Below are positions 9,851 through 16,794 of a stretch of DNA of 32,000 nt, one piece after another. Location: the NCBI GenBank assembly GCA_002341165.1, contig DDNL01000090.1:1-32000 (forward strand). Direction: 5' to 3'. The first letter of the stretch is position 1. The number at the start of each line of letters is the position of its first letter. Made by a program: the position numbers and the translations under genes. Under the pieces are notes generated by a model. The model ran no database searches. It saw only the letters and a program-made list of their open reading frames with translations, and was not told the DNA's origin. This DNA comes from Shewanellaceae bacterium UBA2521. GTDB lineage: Bacteria; Pseudomonadota; Gammaproteobacteria; Enterobacterales; Shewanellaceae.

Positions 9851-10978
9851 TCATGATGTTTTATTTACACTTTTATACTGTACAGGAAGATATTGACTAA
9901 AGAAGCTTAATGTCTTTGATACAGCTTGATTATGTACTTGCTGACGTTCAACACCCTGAGGGCTATAACAAAGGTTCCCAGCATGACTATTTAAGCTAAA
10001 AAACATCTTTCCTACTTTGGTACAAAGTGCTAAAAATGCAAAGTGATTCACTTCAGGTAAGGTGTACAACTGACTATTAGATAGATATTGATGCGCTAAA
10101 GATGCATTAAATTCTGGCAATGTAATACGATCTTTACTCCCTACAATAAGCTGTATTGGCGTCTGAATGCGCTTTAAGCTCTGAATGGTAAAGGCTGGTA
10201 CAACAGCTGGGCTTAGTGCAACTACAGCTTTGAGATGAGGCAAAGTATAATCTTTTGACATAGTCTGCATCGCTTGGTGATAAGTCTTGTGCGTAGCGAC
10301 TTCAGCTTTCTCTTTATCTGAGGTTTCAATATAAGACTGACAATTTCCATCTTTTGGATGTGCCTGACAAAATGTATGCAATCGCTTATTATCGGTTATT
10401 GCTCCTGCGCCTGATAACACAGTATAACCACCCAAAGAAAACCCTAGTAATCCTACTCGATTAAAGTCAATCTGCTGACTCCAAAAGCGCTCTTGGCTCA
10501 GCTTGTCGAGCACAACGTGCAAATCTTGTGCTCTTTCCCACCATAGATCATAACCTTCCTGATATCCCTTTGGCTCGAATCCAGTATTACCATGATGATT
10601 CAAGGCTGCAACGATATAACCTTGCTCAACTAATTTTTCAACCAACCATAGCATTTGAGAAGCAACTCCACCTGAACCATGTGACACAAGAATCAAAGGG
10701 CGTTTATGATCTTGAGCATATAACGCATCAGGAATAACTTCACCAAAATGAAACATTTTGGTTGATAAGATTTTTTTATGAGTCCGAGCTTGTGTTGGAT
10801 AAAATAAGTGTGTTGTAACAGGACGTTGATGCGCTTGATCAAAGTGCAACCTCTGATCATCTTGGTAAAATTTGACCTGCATACCCACTTGATAGGGCTT
10901 ACTCCATATCGCAGAGGAAAAAAGAACAAAGAAAGAGAGAATAGAGAAAAAGTAACGAGAAAAGTAACATCTATGCAT
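9851..10978 (-). CDS. Secreted alpha/beta hydrolase (dienelactone hydrolase / PAF-acetylhydrolase-like)
   Basis: 375 aa ORF with signal peptide, oxyanion region PLILVSHGSGG, nucleophile elbow VGLLGFSLGGYTVL, and C-terminal Asp and His motifs (LIVGSKDRITLPE, LPEVNHFAFL). Confidence 0.8.
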   Translation of the reverse strand: MHRCYFSRYFFSILSFFVLFSSAIWSKPYQVGMQVKFYQDDQRLHFDQAHQRPVTTHLFYPTQARTHKKILSTKMFHFGEVIPDALYAQDHKRPLILVSHGSGGVASQMLWLVEKLVEQGYIVAALNHHGNTGFEPKGYQEGYDLWWERAQDLHVVLDKLSQERFWSQQIDFNRVGLLGFSLGGYTVLSGAGAITDNKRLHTFCQAHPKDGNCQSYIETSDKEKAEVATHKTYHQAMQTMSKDYTLPHLKAVVALSPAVVPAFTIQSLKRIQTPIQLIVGSKDRITLPEFNASLAHQYLSNSQLYTLPEVNHFAFLALCTKVGKMFFSLNSHAGNLCYSPQGVERQQVHNQAVSKTLSFFSQYLPVQYKSVNKTS

Positions 10979-11130: not shown

Positions 11131-11170
11131 AAAAAAAGCCTTTGCTTTACATGCATGCAAGGCAAAGGCT
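11131..11170 (-). terminator. Rho-independent terminator of the tandem receptor-channel genes
   Basis: On the minus strand AGCCTTTGC...GCAAAGGCT (9-bp arms) is followed by TTTTTT; about 33 nt past the 11203 stop. Confidence 0.85.
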
Positions 11171-11202: not shown

Positions 11203-12411
11203 CTAATTCATATATGAATCGCCATAATACTTAGATTTTTGATCTTGCCACTCAAGCGTATGTCGCAGCTCAAGAATAGCAATATTTAATTCTTCTAATC
11301 GATCAAACTTTTTGGATACAACAAAGCCAAAATTCTGCCTAAAGAACTGAAAAGGTAAAATAACAAAGTTTTCATAATTACCTTTTCTTTGTTCTTTTTT
11401 CAAACTAAATCGGTTCACCGCATCATCATTGATCATCGCATCAATCACACCAATATCCATAGCATAAAACTTCTCAGATACAGAGTCATAGCCAATATAA
11501 GAAATCCCTTTTTCTCGAGCATAAGCTTCATGGGTTGTACCACTTTGAACACCAACTCTATAATTGATTAAATCACCCACCCCTGAAATCGAACTACTTT
11601 GAACACCAAGCGTAAAGTAACTGGCTAATAAAGCCGTGATACCTGCTAAAAATAAAGTACTAAATACTGCGAGGAACACAGCTAAGACACGACCTGTTAA
11701 GGTTTTAAACTCATAATAATTAAATGGCCCTTTTGTAATAAATAGCAAGCCTAAAATAAAAGCCTCAATAGCTCGCTTGAAATAACCCAGTTTATCCATA
11801 GCATAAATTTTGTCATTTATATTATGCTCTAAAAAATAAAAAACTATAGATACTGTAATTGCTAAAAAGAACAATAAAGAAATAATTCCTGTAAATCGAC
11901 TCGATTGAAATAAAGATTTAAATTGTTCCCAAGCATTTGATCTTCTTGTGACAATAGATACGTAGGTTTCAAAGTAAGAGTGAGTAAAGCTTGCTCTTTT
12001 GAAACGCTCAGAGGTAATAGTGGTACAAGATAAGCCAATATCAAGCTCATTCTCCATGACATTTTCTAGATGCTCTTTCCAAGTCACGCGATGAAGCTCA
12101 TACTCAAGCCCTAACTGAGCGGCGACTTTGTCCCAAAGATAAACAGCTAAACCCGTTGTTGTGCCATCTTCGTTAAAAAAAACGAAAGGTTCACACTCAG
12201 CAGCTCCAACTTGAATCGCTCCTGATTTCTCTTTTTTTAAATCTTTTTGTCTTGCTTCCTCTTGTTGTTCTAATTTACGAAGCGCTTCATAATCAACCTG
12301 ATTAAACTCTTCCTCTTGCGCAAAGGATAAAGAAATACTGGCGGTAACAAAGCCTACCCAAAAGCAACATTTAAGGATATGTTTAGTAAAAGATATATAT
12401 TTGGCTTTCAT
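11203..12411 (-). CDS. Prokaryotic ionotropic glutamate receptor-like protein: periplasmic solute-binding domain (family 3) split by TM1-pore-TM2, copy 1
   Basis: 402 aa. Signal peptide; S1 (IQVGAAECEPFVFFNEDGTTTGLAVYLWDKVA...DIGLSCTTITSERFKRASFTHSYFETYVSIV); TM1 (IISLLFFLAITVSIVFYFLEH); pore and TM2 (IEAFILGLLFITKGPFNYYEFKTLTGRVLAVFLAVFSTLFLAGITALLAS); S2 (VGDLINYRVGVQSGTTHEAYAREKG...GVIDAMINDDAVNRF). Confidence 0.85.
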   Translation of the reverse strand: MKAKYISFTKHILKCCFWVGFVTASISLSFAQEEEFNQVDYEALRKLEQQEEARQKDLKKEKSGAIQVGAAECEPFVFFNEDGTTTGLAVYLWDKVAAQLGLEYELHRVTWKEHLENVMENELDIGLSCTTITSERFKRASFTHSYFETYVSIVTRRSNAWEQFKSLFQSSRFTGIISLLFFLAITVSIVFYFLEHNINDKIYAMDKLGYFKRAIEAFILGLLFITKGPFNYYEFKTLTGRVLAVFLAVFSTLFLAGITALLASYFTLGVQSSSISGVGDLINYRVGVQSGTTHEAYAREKGISYIGYDSVSEKFYAMDIGVIDAMINDDAVNRFSLKKEQRKGNYENFVILPFQFFRQNFGFVVSKKFDRLEELNIAILELRHTLEWQDQKSKYYGDSYMN

Positions 12412-12479
12412 AACAAAAGTACCTATAACATTAATTTTTATCTACACAGTAGGCAAAAAACTATTTCAAACAAAAGCAA

Positions 12480-13703
12480 CTAATTTAAATATGCTTCTCC
12501 ATAGTATTTTCTTTTCTGCTCTTCCCACTCAGATGTTTCTCGAATACGCAGTAACTCGACATTAAGTTCATCACGCTTTTTAAAAAACTTAGAGATAACA
12601 ATACCTATGTTTTGTCTTAAAAACTGATGAGGTAAAATCTCTAGGTTCTCAAACTTTCTACTTAACTGCTCTCTAGGTAAGAGATATCGATTGATTGCAT
12701 CATCAGTAATGATTGCATCCACAACTCCTACCTCAACAGCATGATATTGCTCGAGTGTTGATTCATAAGGAATATAAGAAATACCTTTGCTTTTTGCATA
12801 AGCTTCATTAGTCGTACCAGCGTGGACAGCTATTCTGAAATTGGCCAATTCTGAAACGTTACGAATACGATGACTCTGGATACCTGTAATCAAAATACTC
12901 GCCATCAATGCCGTGATACTCGCTAAAAATAATGTACTAAATACCCCTAGCAAAACCGCCAGAACTCGACCTGTTAAAGTTTTAAATTCATAATAGTTAA
13001 AAGGCCCTTTGGTGATAAAGAGTAACCCCAAAATAAAAGCTTCGATAATGCGCTTGAACCAGCCTAGCTTATCCATTGCATAGATTTTATCGTTAATATT
13101 GTGTTCTAAAAAATAGAACACAATAGAAACGGCTATGGACAAACAAAAGAGTAAAAGCACAATACTTGAGAACTGATTAGATTTAAATAAAGCTAATATT
13201 TGCTCCCATGTATCCGATTTCTCTGTGACAATAGAGACATAGGTTTCAAAAAAAGGATAGGAAAAATAAACACTTTGAGCCCGAGAAGCGCTAATTGATG
13301 TACAAGATAAACCAATATCAATTCTACCTTCACCGGCATACTCAAGATGTTCGGGGAATGAAGTGCGCTCAATGGTATATTTCAGGTTAAGATTCTTAGC
13401 AATTTGCTTCCATAAATAAACAGTCAAGCCCGTCACGCTACCATCTTCTTCGTAAAATACAAACGGAGGACACTCTGCAGCACCAACTCTAACTTCATCT
13501 GTATTTCTTTTTTGCTTATGTGACTGTTCTTGCTTGTTAAAAAGCTCCTGATCTGCAACATTGAAATCTGATTCATTCGCATAAGAGACATAAGATAAAA
13601 TAAGGCCAACTGATGCCATCATCAGTACCAAAACTGGTTTTAAGCGCATATAAACTAACACATAACATATATCTTTGTAGCGTCTATCCATCATTTTTTG
13701 CAT
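12480..13703 (-). CDS. Prokaryotic ionotropic glutamate receptor-like protein, copy 2 (tandem paralogue)
   Basis: 407 aa with the same S1-TM1-P-TM2-S2 layout; S1 VRVGAAECPPFVFYEEDGSVTGLTVYLWKQIA, pore IEAFILGLLFITKGPFNYYEFKTLTGRVLAVLLGVFSTLFLASITALMAS, S2 VSELANFRIAVHAGTTNEAYAKSKG...GVVDAIITDDAINRYLL. 68 nt separates it from copy 1 on the same strand. Confidence 0.85.
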   Translation of the reverse strand: MQKMMDRRYKDICYVLVYMRLKPVLVLMMASVGLILSYVSYANESDFNVADQELFNKQEQSHKQKRNTDEVRVGAAECPPFVFYEEDGSVTGLTVYLWKQIAKNLNLKYTIERTSFPEHLEYAGEGRIDIGLSCTSISASRAQSVYFSYPFFETYVSIVTEKSDTWEQILALFKSNQFSSIVLLLFCLSIAVSIVFYFLEHNINDKIYAMDKLGWFKRIIEAFILGLLFITKGPFNYYEFKTLTGRVLAVLLGVFSTLFLASITALMASILITGIQSHRIRNVSELANFRIAVHAGTTNEAYAKSKGISYIPYESTLEQYHAVEVGVVDAIITDDAINRYLLPREQLSRKFENLEILPHQFLRQNIGIVISKFFKKRDELNVELLRIRETSEWEEQKRKYYGEAYLN

Positions 13704-13875
13704 CTACTCTGTGGTTCTCTTTCAGTCGTTACATTCGGAAAATTTTGATAAAGACATACAACTATTAATCATAGCCTAAAAATAGGGGCTACAAATTCTA
13801 AAGTGCTTAAAGACCATGCCGATACATCGAAATAGTAGATATGAAGAACTTTAGGCATGAGAATAGAGGTTTGTC

Positions 13876-14667
13876 ATGGACTTTAAATTAATCGCACATA
13901 AACTAATGCCATGGGTATTTACAGCTATATTTTTTAGTGGTATTTCTACATTCTTCTTCACTTTCAAACTTTTTCATAATGTCGATAAGCTAGAAATTGC
14001 GTCACAAGAAAAGTTTCAGTCTTACCTAGTAGCCGATGAGTTACGCCAAAGCTCAGATGATCTCACTAGATTAGTAAGAACTTTTGTTATAACAGGTAAT
14101 GATGACTATGAAAAAATGTTCAAAGATGTCATCTCGATTAGAGATGGCATGACTCCTCGACCTCAAAACTACCATCAAATCTATTGGGATTTCGTTATGA
14201 AACATGGTGATAAACCCAAGCCTGATGGGGAACCTATTGCCATACGAGAACGTATGCGTCAGCTCAGCTTTGCAGAGCAAGAACTTAAGTATCTCACTAA
14301 AGCTAAAGACAATTCAGATAAGCTCATCGGAATTGAAATGGATGCGATCAACGCAACGCGTGGCTTATATCGAGACGAAAGCGATAAATATACCCAAAAA
14401 GGACCTAAGAAAATCCAGTGGGCTATTCAAATCTTGCATAATAGACAATATCATAAAGAAAAAGCGAAAATCATGCGCCCGATTGATAACTTTCTATATG
14501 CTGTAGAAAAGCGCACTTCAGATGCCTTCAGCGATAAAATTAAATCAATTAATAATGCCATCATGTTCATTCTTTTTATCAATGCAGGATTATTGATCTT
14601 CTCTGTATTGAGCTTTGTCTCTTTAATACTTGATAAAAAGAACATTAAAAAAGAGCAAGAAAATTAA
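13876..14667 (+). CDS. Stand-alone membrane-anchored sensor domain of the type fused to MCPs, hybrid histidine kinases or GGDEF proteins; no output domain
   Basis: 263 aa, two TMs flanking ADELRQSSDDLTRLVRTFVITGNDDYEKMFKDVISIRDGMTPRPQNYHQIYWDF...; ends after TM2 with only SLILDKKNIKKEQEN. Confidence 0.75.
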   Translation: MDFKLIAHKLMPWVFTAIFFSGISTFFFTFKLFHNVDKLEIASQEKFQSYLVADELRQSSDDLTRLVRTFVITGNDDYEKMFKDVISIRDGMTPRPQNYHQIYWDFVMKHGDKPKPDGEPIAIRERMRQLSFAEQELKYLTKAKDNSDKLIGIEMDAINATRGLYRDESDKYTQKGPKKIQWAIQILHNRQYHKEKAKIMRPIDNFLYAVEKRTSDAFSDKIKSINNAIMFILFINAGLLIFSVLSFVSLILDKKNIKKEQEN

Positions 14668-15162: not shown

Positions 15163-16794
15163 CTACACTTGAAACTTACCTGTCATGTTTCTTAAATCTG
15201 TTGCTAAGCTGAGAAGATCACTACTTGATTTATTCAGTCCTTCTGCCTGATCAGATGTTGCTTGAGCAGAACTGTGCACATTTTTGAGTGACTTAATTGT
15301 TTCCTCAATAATATCTTCCTGTCTACTACTTGCTGTAACGATTAACTTATTGCCTTGATTAATCTTTTTCATAGCCAACTCAATGGTATTGAGTACACCA
15401 CTTGCAGCTTGTGCTTTTCCGCCCGTTTCATTGGCATATCTTGAGCTTTCTATAATCGACTCAACCGCTTTACGTGTACCCTGCTGAACTTGCTGTACTG
15501 AATTCCTAATTTCTGTTGTGGAGTTGAGGGTTCGGTTTGCGAGAGTTCTCACCTCATCGGCAACAACAGCAAAGCCTCTTCCTTTCTCTCCTGCACGCGC
15601 CGCTTCAATCGCAGCATTAAGCGCCAACAAGTTTGTTTGATCTGCAATATCATTGATGACACTGATTACAGATTCAATACTCTCTACTTCATCACTTAAA
15701 GTCACAATATCATTGTTAATTTCTGTGACCTTTTGCACAAGAACCTGTGTTGACTCAACAGACTCATTCACCACTTCGTGCCCTATTTCCGCCTCTGACA
15801 ATGCATCACTTGCAATATTGTTTGCATTTTCTGCATGCGCTGAAACTTCTTTTGCACTATCGCAAAGAGAGTTAATAGAAACATCAATGGTATCGAGTTT
15901 GGCCAGCTGATCTTGAATGCCATCAGCCGTATCATTACCAATAGCGACAATATTATCAGATGTTTTTTTAAGATTTTGTGAAGCAACATTGATCTGTGTC
16001 ATGATCAGATGAATCTGCTTGAGCATATCATTTAAATCAACCGACATCACTGAGATTTCATAAGGACAAAGTGTATCGGCTTTAACTGTTAAATTACTGT
16101 TTTGCGATACATCACTTAAAACACCTGATAGGTTTTTGATAGATTTTTGAATCGCTCTATAGTTAAAGACGTTCACAGCAATCATAAAAATAATAACAAG
16201 AATATTCAGTATAACGGTCAAATTTTGTATCGAGCTATACTGATCTGCTATCGTTTTACGCTCAAGAGAAGCTTGGTTCAGTTGAATCTCAACCAGTTCA
16301 GTAATCTTATTACTGATCGGATCAATCGTATCATAAAGCGGACCATCAAAGTCGTTCAGCTGATAAGCAACGCGTCCTTTCATCGTACCCAGCTTACGAA
16401 TTACATCATCAACAGATTTATCTGCTGGAATAAAAAGCGCTTCAGCCTCTTTAGCCAATTCAAGCTCCTCTTCAGGCAGCTCAGACTCTTTATAAATTTT
16501 CCAGTTTTTCGCAATATGACCTTTAGCAAACTCTAAATTCTCTTTTGCTTCTTCTGCCGTTACAATACCTGTGTTCGCTTTGTTCACAGCATCAATAATT
16601 AATACAGCATAATCGTCTGCAATGGTCTTAAGCGTACGTAAAGGCACAACGCTGGAGTCGTAAATAGATACCGCCGAGCTCTCGATACCTTGAAGGGACT
16701 TTAAAGATAAAAAAGCAAACCCTATCAAGAAAAGCAGAGGCACAACAGATGTGATAATTAATCGATATTTAATACTGAGTTGGCTCAAACTCAT
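15163..16794 (-). CDS. Methyl-accepting chemotaxis protein (4HB-type periplasmic sensor, HAMP-like linker, MCP signalling domain)
   Basis: 543 aa, two TMs and the hallmark hairpin [56 protein letters not shown]. Confidence 0.93.

Follow-up and report, generated by a model that had tools for sequence, protein, structure and literature searches.

Why should two neighbouring receptor-like proteins keep an almost invariant membrane pore while the lobes that hold their ligands drift apart, and does such a pattern mean that both serve one channel? This question is raised by genes A and B, which lie side by side in a 32,000-nt stretch of DNA from Shewanellaceae bacterium UBA2521 (GCA_002341165.1, contig DDNL01000090.1, positions 1-32,000 of the forward strand), referred to below as the window. 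In the reading that we favour, B-A is a two-gene operon encoding paralogous amino-acid-gated channel subunits of the ionotropic glutamate receptor (iGluR) superfamily that co-assemble; taken as a whole, this statement seems to us evenly balanced between being right and being wrong. Its descriptive part, that is, the fold and topology, the equivalents of amino-acid-binding residues, a filter that is not of the K+ type, an old duplication, the constraint on the core and six differences between the ligand pockets, is held with high confidence.

Both open reading frames (ORFs) are intact in the window, and the exact A and B proteins are present in Tara Oceans and other marine assemblies. The two proteins share 218 of 384 aligned residues (57%, BLASTP). 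The block IEAFILGLLFITKGPFNYYEFKTLTGRVLAV (A aa 215-245, 11677-11769; B aa 220-250, 12954-13046) is identical at 31/31 residues, with 17 of its 31 codons differing (18 nt) and every difference synonymous, and VSIVFYFLEHNINDKIYAMDKLG (A 11785-11853, B 13062-13130) is identical at 23/23 residues, with 14 codons differing, again always synonymously. Both blocks, together with the codon count for the first, had been reported in the initial annotation of this DNA and were recovered exactly, as were the two lobe strings that it quoted from A and B; the B copy of the second block reaches, at 13130, slightly past 13100, where the range that it gave for the pattern ends. Across the channel core (A aa 187-258), 67 of 72 residues are identical (93%), as against 117 of 224 (52%) in the lobes (Fisher p = 3e-11), and the lobes thus diverge far more than the pore, as had been claimed. 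The sliding-window analysis (Nei-Gojobori) that had been suggested as a check separates the two parts in the same way: the proportion of nonsynonymous differences (pN) is 0.03-0.06 over A aa 179-258 and 0.25-0.43 in the lobes, while that of synonymous differences (pS) is 0.5-1.1 along the whole alignment. The nonsynonymous divergence (dN) of the core, 0.043, is about ten times below that of S1 and S2 (0.40-0.42), and synonymous differences are at or beyond saturation in both core and lobes, the core pS being ~0.78.

Saturation was also assessed by comparing codon identity at identical residues with a random draw from the codon usage of the window. In the core, 31/66 codons were identical where 29.3 were expected (0.47 vs 0.44; z = 0.46), and in the lobes 60/115 where 49.5 were expected (z = 2.1). 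As the core codons sit at the random expectation, the synonymous sites are saturated and, judged by its DNA, the core is no younger than the remainder of the gene. A and B therefore stem from an ancient duplication, with purifying selection about ten times stronger on the channel core than on the lobes. The observation of a near-invariant pore despite extensive synonymous divergence is confirmed, and is somewhat stronger than first stated; the reading of old paralogues with a pore under purifying selection is supported.

To which class do these proteins belong? In Pfam, PF00497 (SBP_bac_3) spans A aa 68-397 and B aa 72-402 as a single stretch (1.3e-19 for B), while PF00060 (Lig_chan) reaches 26.8 and 24.9 bits, under the cut-off of 30.8, and Lig_chan-Glu_bd is likewise sub-threshold in both. 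The alignment with the glutamine-binding protein GlnBP extends to about residue 160 and resumes at about residue 270, with the membrane module in between. An AlphaFold2 model, built for A only from an alignment of 81 sequences, has a mean predicted local distance difference test score (pLDDT) of 86.9, with 78-92 in the membrane helices, and consists of an N-terminal hydrophobic helix, S1 (66-160), M1 (171-195), a pore helix (210-227) and loop (228-237), a long inner helix, M2 (238-269), and S2 (278-396), with nothing after S2. Foldseek aligns this model with the ligand-binding and transmembrane domain (LBD-TMD) chains of NMDA and AMPA receptors over ~380-410 columns (E ~1e-19), and searching the PDB by sequence likewise leads to entries for NMDA and delta receptors and for bacterial iGluR homologues. 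Gene B is made up of a signal peptide, S1, M1, pore loop, M2 and S2, and the architecture of gene A is identical. A and B are proteins of the GluR0-type minimal iGluR layout, S1-M1-pore loop-M2-S2, without an amino-terminal domain (ATD) and without M4. The inner helix carries a gate motif of the form (A/S)-I-T-A-L-(L/M)-A-S (AGITALLAS at A 256-264, ASITALMAS in B), in which T259 and A260 never vary and at least 90% of the 81 sequences keep L262, A263 and S264; it resembles SYTANLAAF, the iGluR motif at the end of the inner helix.

GluR0 of Synechocystis PCC 6803, reportedly described by Chen et al. in 1999, has the same order of signal peptide, S1, M1, re-entrant pore loop, M2 and S2, and a periplasmic amino-acid-binding clamshell; E195 and N199 after M1, as well as the T-A gate motif, are common to A/B and the GluR0-type relatives P0083-P0086. 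GluR0 is, however, only ~23-29% identical to A/B and is a single gene whose product forms a K+-selective homotetramer (for its physiology, see PMC13099474), whereas A and B are two paralogues, apparently co-transcribed. Among eukaryotic receptors, the NMDA (GluN1/GluN2) and AMPA (GluA1-4) types resemble A/B in that their paralogous subunits have kept the pore and gate alike but have diverged in the ligand-binding domains, and the two subunit types of NMDA receptors bind different amino acids. Eukaryotic iGluRs are the best whole-chain structural matches to A, and the sequence matches extend through M1-M3. A and B differ from them in having no ATD, M4 or C-terminal domain, are only ~15-18% identical to them, and carry a filter unrelated in sequence to the eukaryotic Q/R/N-site loop.

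The ligand pockets were mapped by homology, using a GlnBP query sequence equal to PDB 1GGG/1WDN at 225/226 residues and the ligand contacts described for the 1WDN structure. The lobes share their fold, and the Arg/Thr/Asp positions for the amino-acid backbone, with GlnBP (1WDN), ArtJ and HisJ/ArgT; of these, HisJ and ArgT are adjacent paralogues of different specificity that serve one membrane unit. R136/R141, T131/S136, T292-T293/T297-T298 and D329/D334 of A/B align with GlnBP R75, T70, T118-G119 and D157, which hold the alpha-carboxylate and alpha-amino groups of the bound amino acid, and given these conserved equivalents both subunits most likely bind alpha-amino acids or close analogues. 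Six of the 15 contact-aligned positions nevertheless differ between A and B (W111 in A against F116 in B, T131 against S136, Q289 against H294, H294 against N299, N328 against T333, and F361 against I366). At all six, A has the residue of P0002 and B that of P0004, the nearest relative of each. Such a pattern is what would be expected of two receptor types with different, stably kept specificities, and the different ligands that had been proposed for the two subunits are likely on these predicted pocket positions. The clade of A, B and P0002 is further set apart from the Photobacterium-type pocket by A-A-E-C in place of S/T-Y-x-C, W/F in place of L and Q/H in place of K.

The pore is of a distinct kind. 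Where P0083-P0086, which bear Ion_trans_2 (PF07885), have T-T-V-G-Y-G-D, A and B have T-K-G-P-F-N-Y, and PF07885 gives no match in A or B when searched with Pfam. The K+-selective GluR0 subgroup (Group 1 of Ger et al.) is therefore ruled out as the class of A/B. T226 is invariant, and at least 90% of family members have K227, which takes the place of the second threonine of TTVGYG in potassium channels; the most distant ones have R, S or Q instead. The predicted ring of four lysines argues against K+-channel-like conduction, and a pore loop tipped by four lysines would be unlike the filter of any characterised iGluR or K+ channel.

The same pore is found well beyond this locus. A near-invariant E-(A/G)-F-I-L-G-L-L-F-I-T-K-G-P-F-N-Y-Y-E-F-K-T-L-T-G-R-V is present in homologues from Photobacterium, Moritella, Ferrimonas, Vibrio and Desulfosediminicola whose overall identity is just ~40%. 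The subfamily is nonetheless very rare: the membrane module alone retrieves only 25 clusters (50% identity) at E <= 1e-3 among 1.84 billion representative proteins, and in the most distant of these the loop is loosened to T-x-G-P/x. Ger et al. 2010 (PMC2950845) defined a 'Group 2' of prokaryotic iGluRs with a P region of no known selectivity, listed in it one protein from Photobacterium profundum and one from Vibrio fischeri, and proposed the name 'putative glutamate-sensitive ion channel'. By that description, with S1/S2 around two transmembrane helices and a non-potassium P region, Group 2 matches A/B, and the Photobacterium, Moritella, Ferrimonas and Vibrio homologues have the pore ITKGPFNYYEF in common with A/B at ~40% overall identity; unlike the A/B pair, however, the Group 2-like genes of Photobacterium and the others are single-copy. 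The A/B type is thus known bioinformatically, while the pore itself is functionally uncharacterised, and in the literature found GluR0 is the sole functionally characterised bacterial iGluR. Named members of the family come mostly from marine Vibrionaceae (chiefly Photobacterium), Moritella and Ferrimonas, with additions from Desulfosediminicola and an alphaproteobacterial metagenome-assembled genome (MAG), a spread that suggests occasional horizontal transfer. No fewer than 90% of family members share two cysteines of A, C73 (~12193-12195) within C-P-P-F and C129 (~12025-12027) within S-C-x-S-I-T, whose columns correspond to F13 and G68 of the GlnBP pocket. Beside the ligand site, these cysteines may make up a periplasmic disulfide or an element that responds to redox state or to thiols.

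As the pore loop is near-invariant throughout the family, its invariance in A and B mostly reflects family-wide constraint and does not by itself require a heteromer. The similarity of the A and B cores nonetheless goes beyond this constraint, as judged by an empirical null and by comparison with P0002. Pairing 75 full-length family members gives 1370 pairs with lobe identities of 47-57%; their core identity averages 0.715 (standard deviation 0.069) with a maximum of 0.90, and A-B, at 0.93 (z ~3.1), stands at the top of all, although the pairs share members, so that this is a statement about an outlier and not a p-value. Family pairs with a core identity of 0.90-0.96 normally have ~84% lobe identity. 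In the comparison with P0002, A-P0002 have 62% identity in the lobes and 78% in the core, B-P0002 51% and 79%, and A-B 52% and 93%, and the core of A differs from that of B at 5 positions and from that of P0002 at 16. Unique changes in this trio number 2 (A), 1 (B) and 12 (P0002) in the core, and 22, 47 and 24, respectively, in the lobes (Fisher p = 0.03 for A vs P0002 and 1e-4 for B vs P0002). Family members vary in the cytoplasmic linker between M1 and the pore helix (M1-P linker), yet A and B have almost the same one. The core states of the P0002 type recur in L032 and are therefore stable in that clade. Slow evolution of the whole lineage was rejected as the cause of the conserved core, because the lobes of A and P0002 have changed equally (22 vs 24).

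Could the two proteins form one channel? The genes lie on the same strand, B first, with a hairpin-free spacer of 68 nt between them and a terminator-like structure after A (Table 1), and on this layout they are most likely co-transcribed. In the mechanism that we propose, A and B subunits would be made from one transcript, and their 93% identical pore-forming interface would allow mixed A/B tetramers, possibly alongside homomers, so that one conduction pathway would be gated by two different ligand pockets. The need for compatibility within a shared pore, added to the strong family-wide constraint, would then make the A and B cores change less than those of any comparable family pair. Several points favour co-assembly: a presumably homo-oligomeric ancestor, given the single-copy relatives and the tetrameric architecture of iGluRs; the near identity, in A and B, of the pore helix and inner helix that make up the tetramer interface; the apparent joint expression of the genes; and a precedent from yeast, where duplicated homomers often keep heteromerising through their shared interface and the loss of this ability is linked to regulatory divergence (PMC6711710). 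Weighing these, we give co-assembly of A and B into mixed tetramers about an even chance. A heteromer sensing two ligands, the explanation put forward in the initial annotation, is plausible from the sequences of this single lineage.

A number of findings weigh against co-assembly, among them the distribution of the genes. A scan of 185,579 species-representative genomes gave 27 loci (25 Photobacterium, counting two MAGs, plus three others); all 27 have one copy within 6 kb on each side, and no genome has two loci. The closest relatives, P0002 and P0003 (59-60% identical to A), and a partial gene in L032 are single-copy and lie in a different chromosomal context, and L028, L030 and L032 hold a single copy each; L029 comes from the same genome as the window and is not an independent locus. 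Frequent single-copy genomes had been named in advance as evidence against the heteromer, and at the level of the family it is single copies that are found. The only other B-type gene found is P0004, whose lobes are 89% identical to those of B; it lies on a 2085-bp contig that ends 37 nt past the stop codon, which is too short to show whether A follows. A metagenome scan with the back-translated clade-specific peptide FETYVSIVT returned two chance matches without homology and no further paired loci. The A/B pair is thus found in one lineage, represented by a single population and one short contig, and the single-copy relatives indicate that homomeric assembly is the ancestral, working state. 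To the same side belong the near-invariance of the pore loop across the family, including the 27 single-copy genomes, an identity between A and B of just 50% in M1, the non-independence of the pairs in the empirical null, and two other possible sources of the core excess, namely lobes that evolved faster once duplicated and a core that was converted long ago.

The main rival reading has A and B as two independent homotetrameric receptors that specialised for different ligands after a tandem duplication, the pore of each being kept by the intolerance of change seen throughout the family. The high ratio of core to lobe identity would then come from faster evolution of the lobes after duplication, with no extra constraint on the pore. 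The single copies in all the other genomes speak for a working homomer, the pocket positions differ between A and B, and the lobes of B have indeed changed about twice as much as those of A (47 vs 22; relative-rate chi-square 9.1, p = 0.003). On the other hand, with apparent co-transcription and a near-identical pore helix and M2, a dedicated mechanism would be needed to avoid mixing. Moreover, under the lobe phylogeny the duplication predates the split from P0002, and faster lobe evolution then cannot explain why the core of A differs at 5 positions from B and at 16 from P0002; nor does it account for the otherwise variable M1-P linker being the same in both. We regard two separate homomers as a real possibility, to which we give somewhat less than even weight.

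The order of duplication and split rests on the trees. In a likelihood comparison of ten taxa (Poisson+F+G4, with bootstrap by resampling of estimated log-likelihoods, RELL), the lobes gave a RELL value of 0.004 for A+B as sisters, 0.35 for A+P0002 and 0.64 for B+P0002, while the core gave 0.755, 0.099 and 0.145, respectively. Neighbour-joining favoured A+P0002 with bootstrap values of 187/300 and 250/300 (lobes 250/300). These trees establish just one point firmly, the rejection of A+B as sisters by the lobes. On the lobe data, the duplication predates the split from the single-copy P0002 lineage, which would then have lost one copy; the core hints weakly at a closer relationship between A and B. 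Three histories fit: an ancient conversion of the core, a slower evolution of the core due to compatibility within a shared pore, and a burst of core changes in the single-copy clade after the loss of the partner. An unequal crossing-over that made the single-copy P0002 gene a chimera was rejected, since S1 and S2 of P0002 are equally A-like (62% and 63%).

In the first of these histories, gene conversion copied the membrane core from one paralogue to the other after the P0002 split and its synonymous trace has since been randomised; the extra core similarity would then be historical, would fit either assembly model and would be uninformative on assembly. The discordance within the gene, with the core preferring and the lobes rejecting A+B, speaks for this history, and site patterns in which A equals B against P0002 make up 12/15 in the core and 24/93 in the lobes (Fisher p = 9e-5). 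V190, N197 and I198 of the core look shared-derived in A and B, four core sites look derived in P0002, and the P0002-type states are stable in the second lineage, L032. The polarisation is weak, however, with an outgroup consensus of just 0.51-0.68 at V190, N197 and I198; the core support for A+B is weak as well (delta lnL, the difference in log-likelihood, is 1.8) and comes from few, conservative and poorly polarised sites under a simple model with a distant outgroup. No synonymous trace is present, codon identity in the core being no higher than in the lobes, and even after a conversion the linker would have needed strong purifying selection peculiar to the lineage. Ancient conversion appears rather unlikely to us. 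A separate pattern concerns B and P0004 (B at 12480-13703 against L031 837-2048), for which the synonymous divergence (dS) is 0.44-0.57 in S1/S2 and 0-0.17 in the N-terminus, M1 and core. For the adjoining gene of a 263-aa protein (13876-14527 against L031 2-652) it is 0.155, and the lobe-coding DNA of B is 3-4x more diverged than its surroundings. Conversion of the B lobes by those of A was rejected as the source, since the comparison showed neither directionality nor clustering; the lobes may instead have recombined with divergent alleles or carry a long-lived polymorphism.

A stricter form of co-assembly would have A and B as an obligate or preferential A2B2 heterotetramer that opens only with two different periplasmic ligands, the pores being matched by the constraint of assembling together. 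It would parallel the NMDA receptors, which require glycine and glutamate, and if true this would be the first prokaryotic iGluR of two subunit types, conducting through a filter, TKGPFNYYEF, that is neither K+-channel-like nor animal-iGluR-like in selectivity. We consider this strict form improbable.

It is also very improbable that A and B are ordinary periplasmic amino-acid-binding proteins of ATP-binding cassette (ABC) transporters, or that one copy is decaying. Public names such as 'polar amino acid transport system substrate-binding protein' say the former, and the best sequence matches in the PDB and NCBIfam are indeed binding proteins. Unlike GlnBP, ArtJ, HisJ and ArgT, however, A and B carry a channel module of ~110 aa (M1, pore loop, M2) between the lobes and have no ABC partner genes, no permease or ATPase gene adjoining the pair; the whole chain fits iGluR LBD-TMD structures, and the NCBIfam scores are 55-63 bits against cut-offs of 256-312. 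Taken together, the membrane insert, the lack of a permease or ATPase neighbour and the low NCBIfam scores mean that the annotation as 'ABC transporter substrate-binding protein' is wrong. Decay is suggested by one assembly in which A is split at a T-run; against it, both ORFs are intact in the window, and between B and P0004 dN/dS (omega) is 0.07-0.16, with only 3 residues differing in the cores, which places B under purifying selection. Finally, a recent gene conversion or duplication that holds the pore blocks identical deserves practically no credence, for nothing but the amino-acid identity of the two blocks speaks for it, while their 17/31 and 14/23 differing codons, the core pS and a core codon identity at the random expectation exclude it, as the initial annotation had also concluded for conversion.

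Table 1 Features of the channel locus and its flanks, with positions in the window
Feature	Positions	Strand	Description and basis
Alpha/beta hydrolase	9851-10978	-	S9/S33/dienelactone-hydrolase-like
Intrinsic-terminator-like hairpin and U7 run	11131-11170	-	3' of A; -19.3 kcal/mol, z = -4.5, 0/200 shuffles as stable
Gene A	11203-12411	-	402-aa iGluR-like subunit, downstream member; ORF, translation, Pfam, AlphaFold2, Foldseek
A segment S2	11218-11604	-	aa 270-398; pocket positions Q289, T292, T293, H294, N328, D329, F361
Channel core of A	11638-11853	-	aa 187-258; M1 end, cytoplasmic M1-P linker, pore helix, filter TKGPFNYYEF, M2 to ITALLAS gate motif
Filter of A	11713-11736		T226-Y233
A segment S1	11932-12216	-	aa 66-160; Arg136 and Thr131 at the GlnBP R75/T70 positions, Trp111 at F50; Pfam, GlnBP alignment
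T8 homopolymer run	12175-12182	-	In S1 of gene A, codons 77-79
B-A spacer	12412-12479	-	68 nt, without terminator-like structure; fold -7.1 kcal/mol, z = 0.18 vs shuffles
Gene B	12480-13703	-	407-aa iGluR-like subunit, upstream member; ORF, translation, Pfam
B segment S2	12495-12881	-	aa 275-403; H294, T297, T298, N299, T333, D334, I366
Channel core of B	12915-13130	-	aa 192-263
Filter of B	12990-13013		T231-Y238
B segment S1	13209-13493	-	aa 71-165; R141, S136, F116
Divergent intergenic region, B / 263-aa ORF	13704-13875	.	Presumed B-A promoter region, from gene layout
263-aa membrane protein	13876-14667	+	Transmembrane helix, periplasmic sensor-like domain, transmembrane helix; no output domain
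Methyl-accepting chemotaxis protein (MCP)	15163-16794	-	4HB-type

The T8 run within gene A coincides with a difference between assemblies: in one NCBI assembly of the same population, gene A is split into products of 79 aa and 330 aa, exactly as a T9 run predicts. This is either an assembly error or slipped-strand switching, which would turn A off and leave B on.

Matches to consensus promoters in the divergent intergenic region are weak. The 263-aa protein encoded on its other side has no sequence match in Pfam, NCBIfam or the PDB and is unrelated to the adjacent MCP; at 34-50% identity it resembles the sensor modules at the N-termini of MCP/chemoreceptor, HAMP/histidine-kinase, GGDEF and adenylate-cyclase proteins. 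Stand-alone homologues, with 62-68% identity, are found in L028 (6948-7760, -), L030 (2737-3549, -), L032 (1036-1836, +) and L033 (355-1155, +). In the first three, the homologue adjoins a single-copy channel gene divergently while the remaining context differs, and in L033 the contig has room beside it for just a 35-residue trace of the channel gene. In the 27 genome loci, which come chiefly from Photobacterium, tblastn (E <= 1e-3) detected no homologue. An auxiliary or regulatory role of the 263-aa protein alongside the channel is conceivable. With the MCP on one side of the putative channel operon and the hydrolase on the other, the whole stretch, which sits between the conserved yraP and trkA neighbourhoods, resembles a small sensory gene island. 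The surrounding region is one of housekeeping genes (ccm genes, rsmI, lpoA-yraN-diaA-yraP, trkA-rsmB-fmt-def and dprA). Among named organisms, the RsmB encoded there is matched best, at about 60% identity, by Shewanella and Paraferrimonas, in keeping with a marine, uncultured bacterium of the Alteromonadales. The conserved neighbours of the single-copy Photobacterium genes (NfeD, RlmF, ViaA/RavA-like) gave no functional lead.

What, then, does this locus mean for the family? The kind of protein was already known, though uncharacterised; what is new is the pair, apparently co-transcribed, divergent in its pockets and near-identical in its pore. In addition, a systematic error of annotation, by which these channels are labelled as binding proteins of ABC transporters, is put right. 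Hetero-oligomeric assembly with ligand-tuned subunits is a hallmark of animal glutamate receptors, and we know of no such iGluR assembly described in prokaryotes; the literature that we searched likewise yielded no prokaryotic ligand-tuned hetero-oligomeric iGluR, nor a second subunit type for GluR0. If the subunits do mix, this two-gene bacterial system, which has neither ATD nor M4, would offer a minimal and readily expressed model of a two-ligand receptor, in which one could ask how subunits specialise after the duplication of a homomer, how a shared pore constrains both copies, and which ions pass through an invariant, atypical filter. If they do not mix, the locus would still be a clean natural case of modular evolution, with the conduction module frozen and the sensor module free to change.

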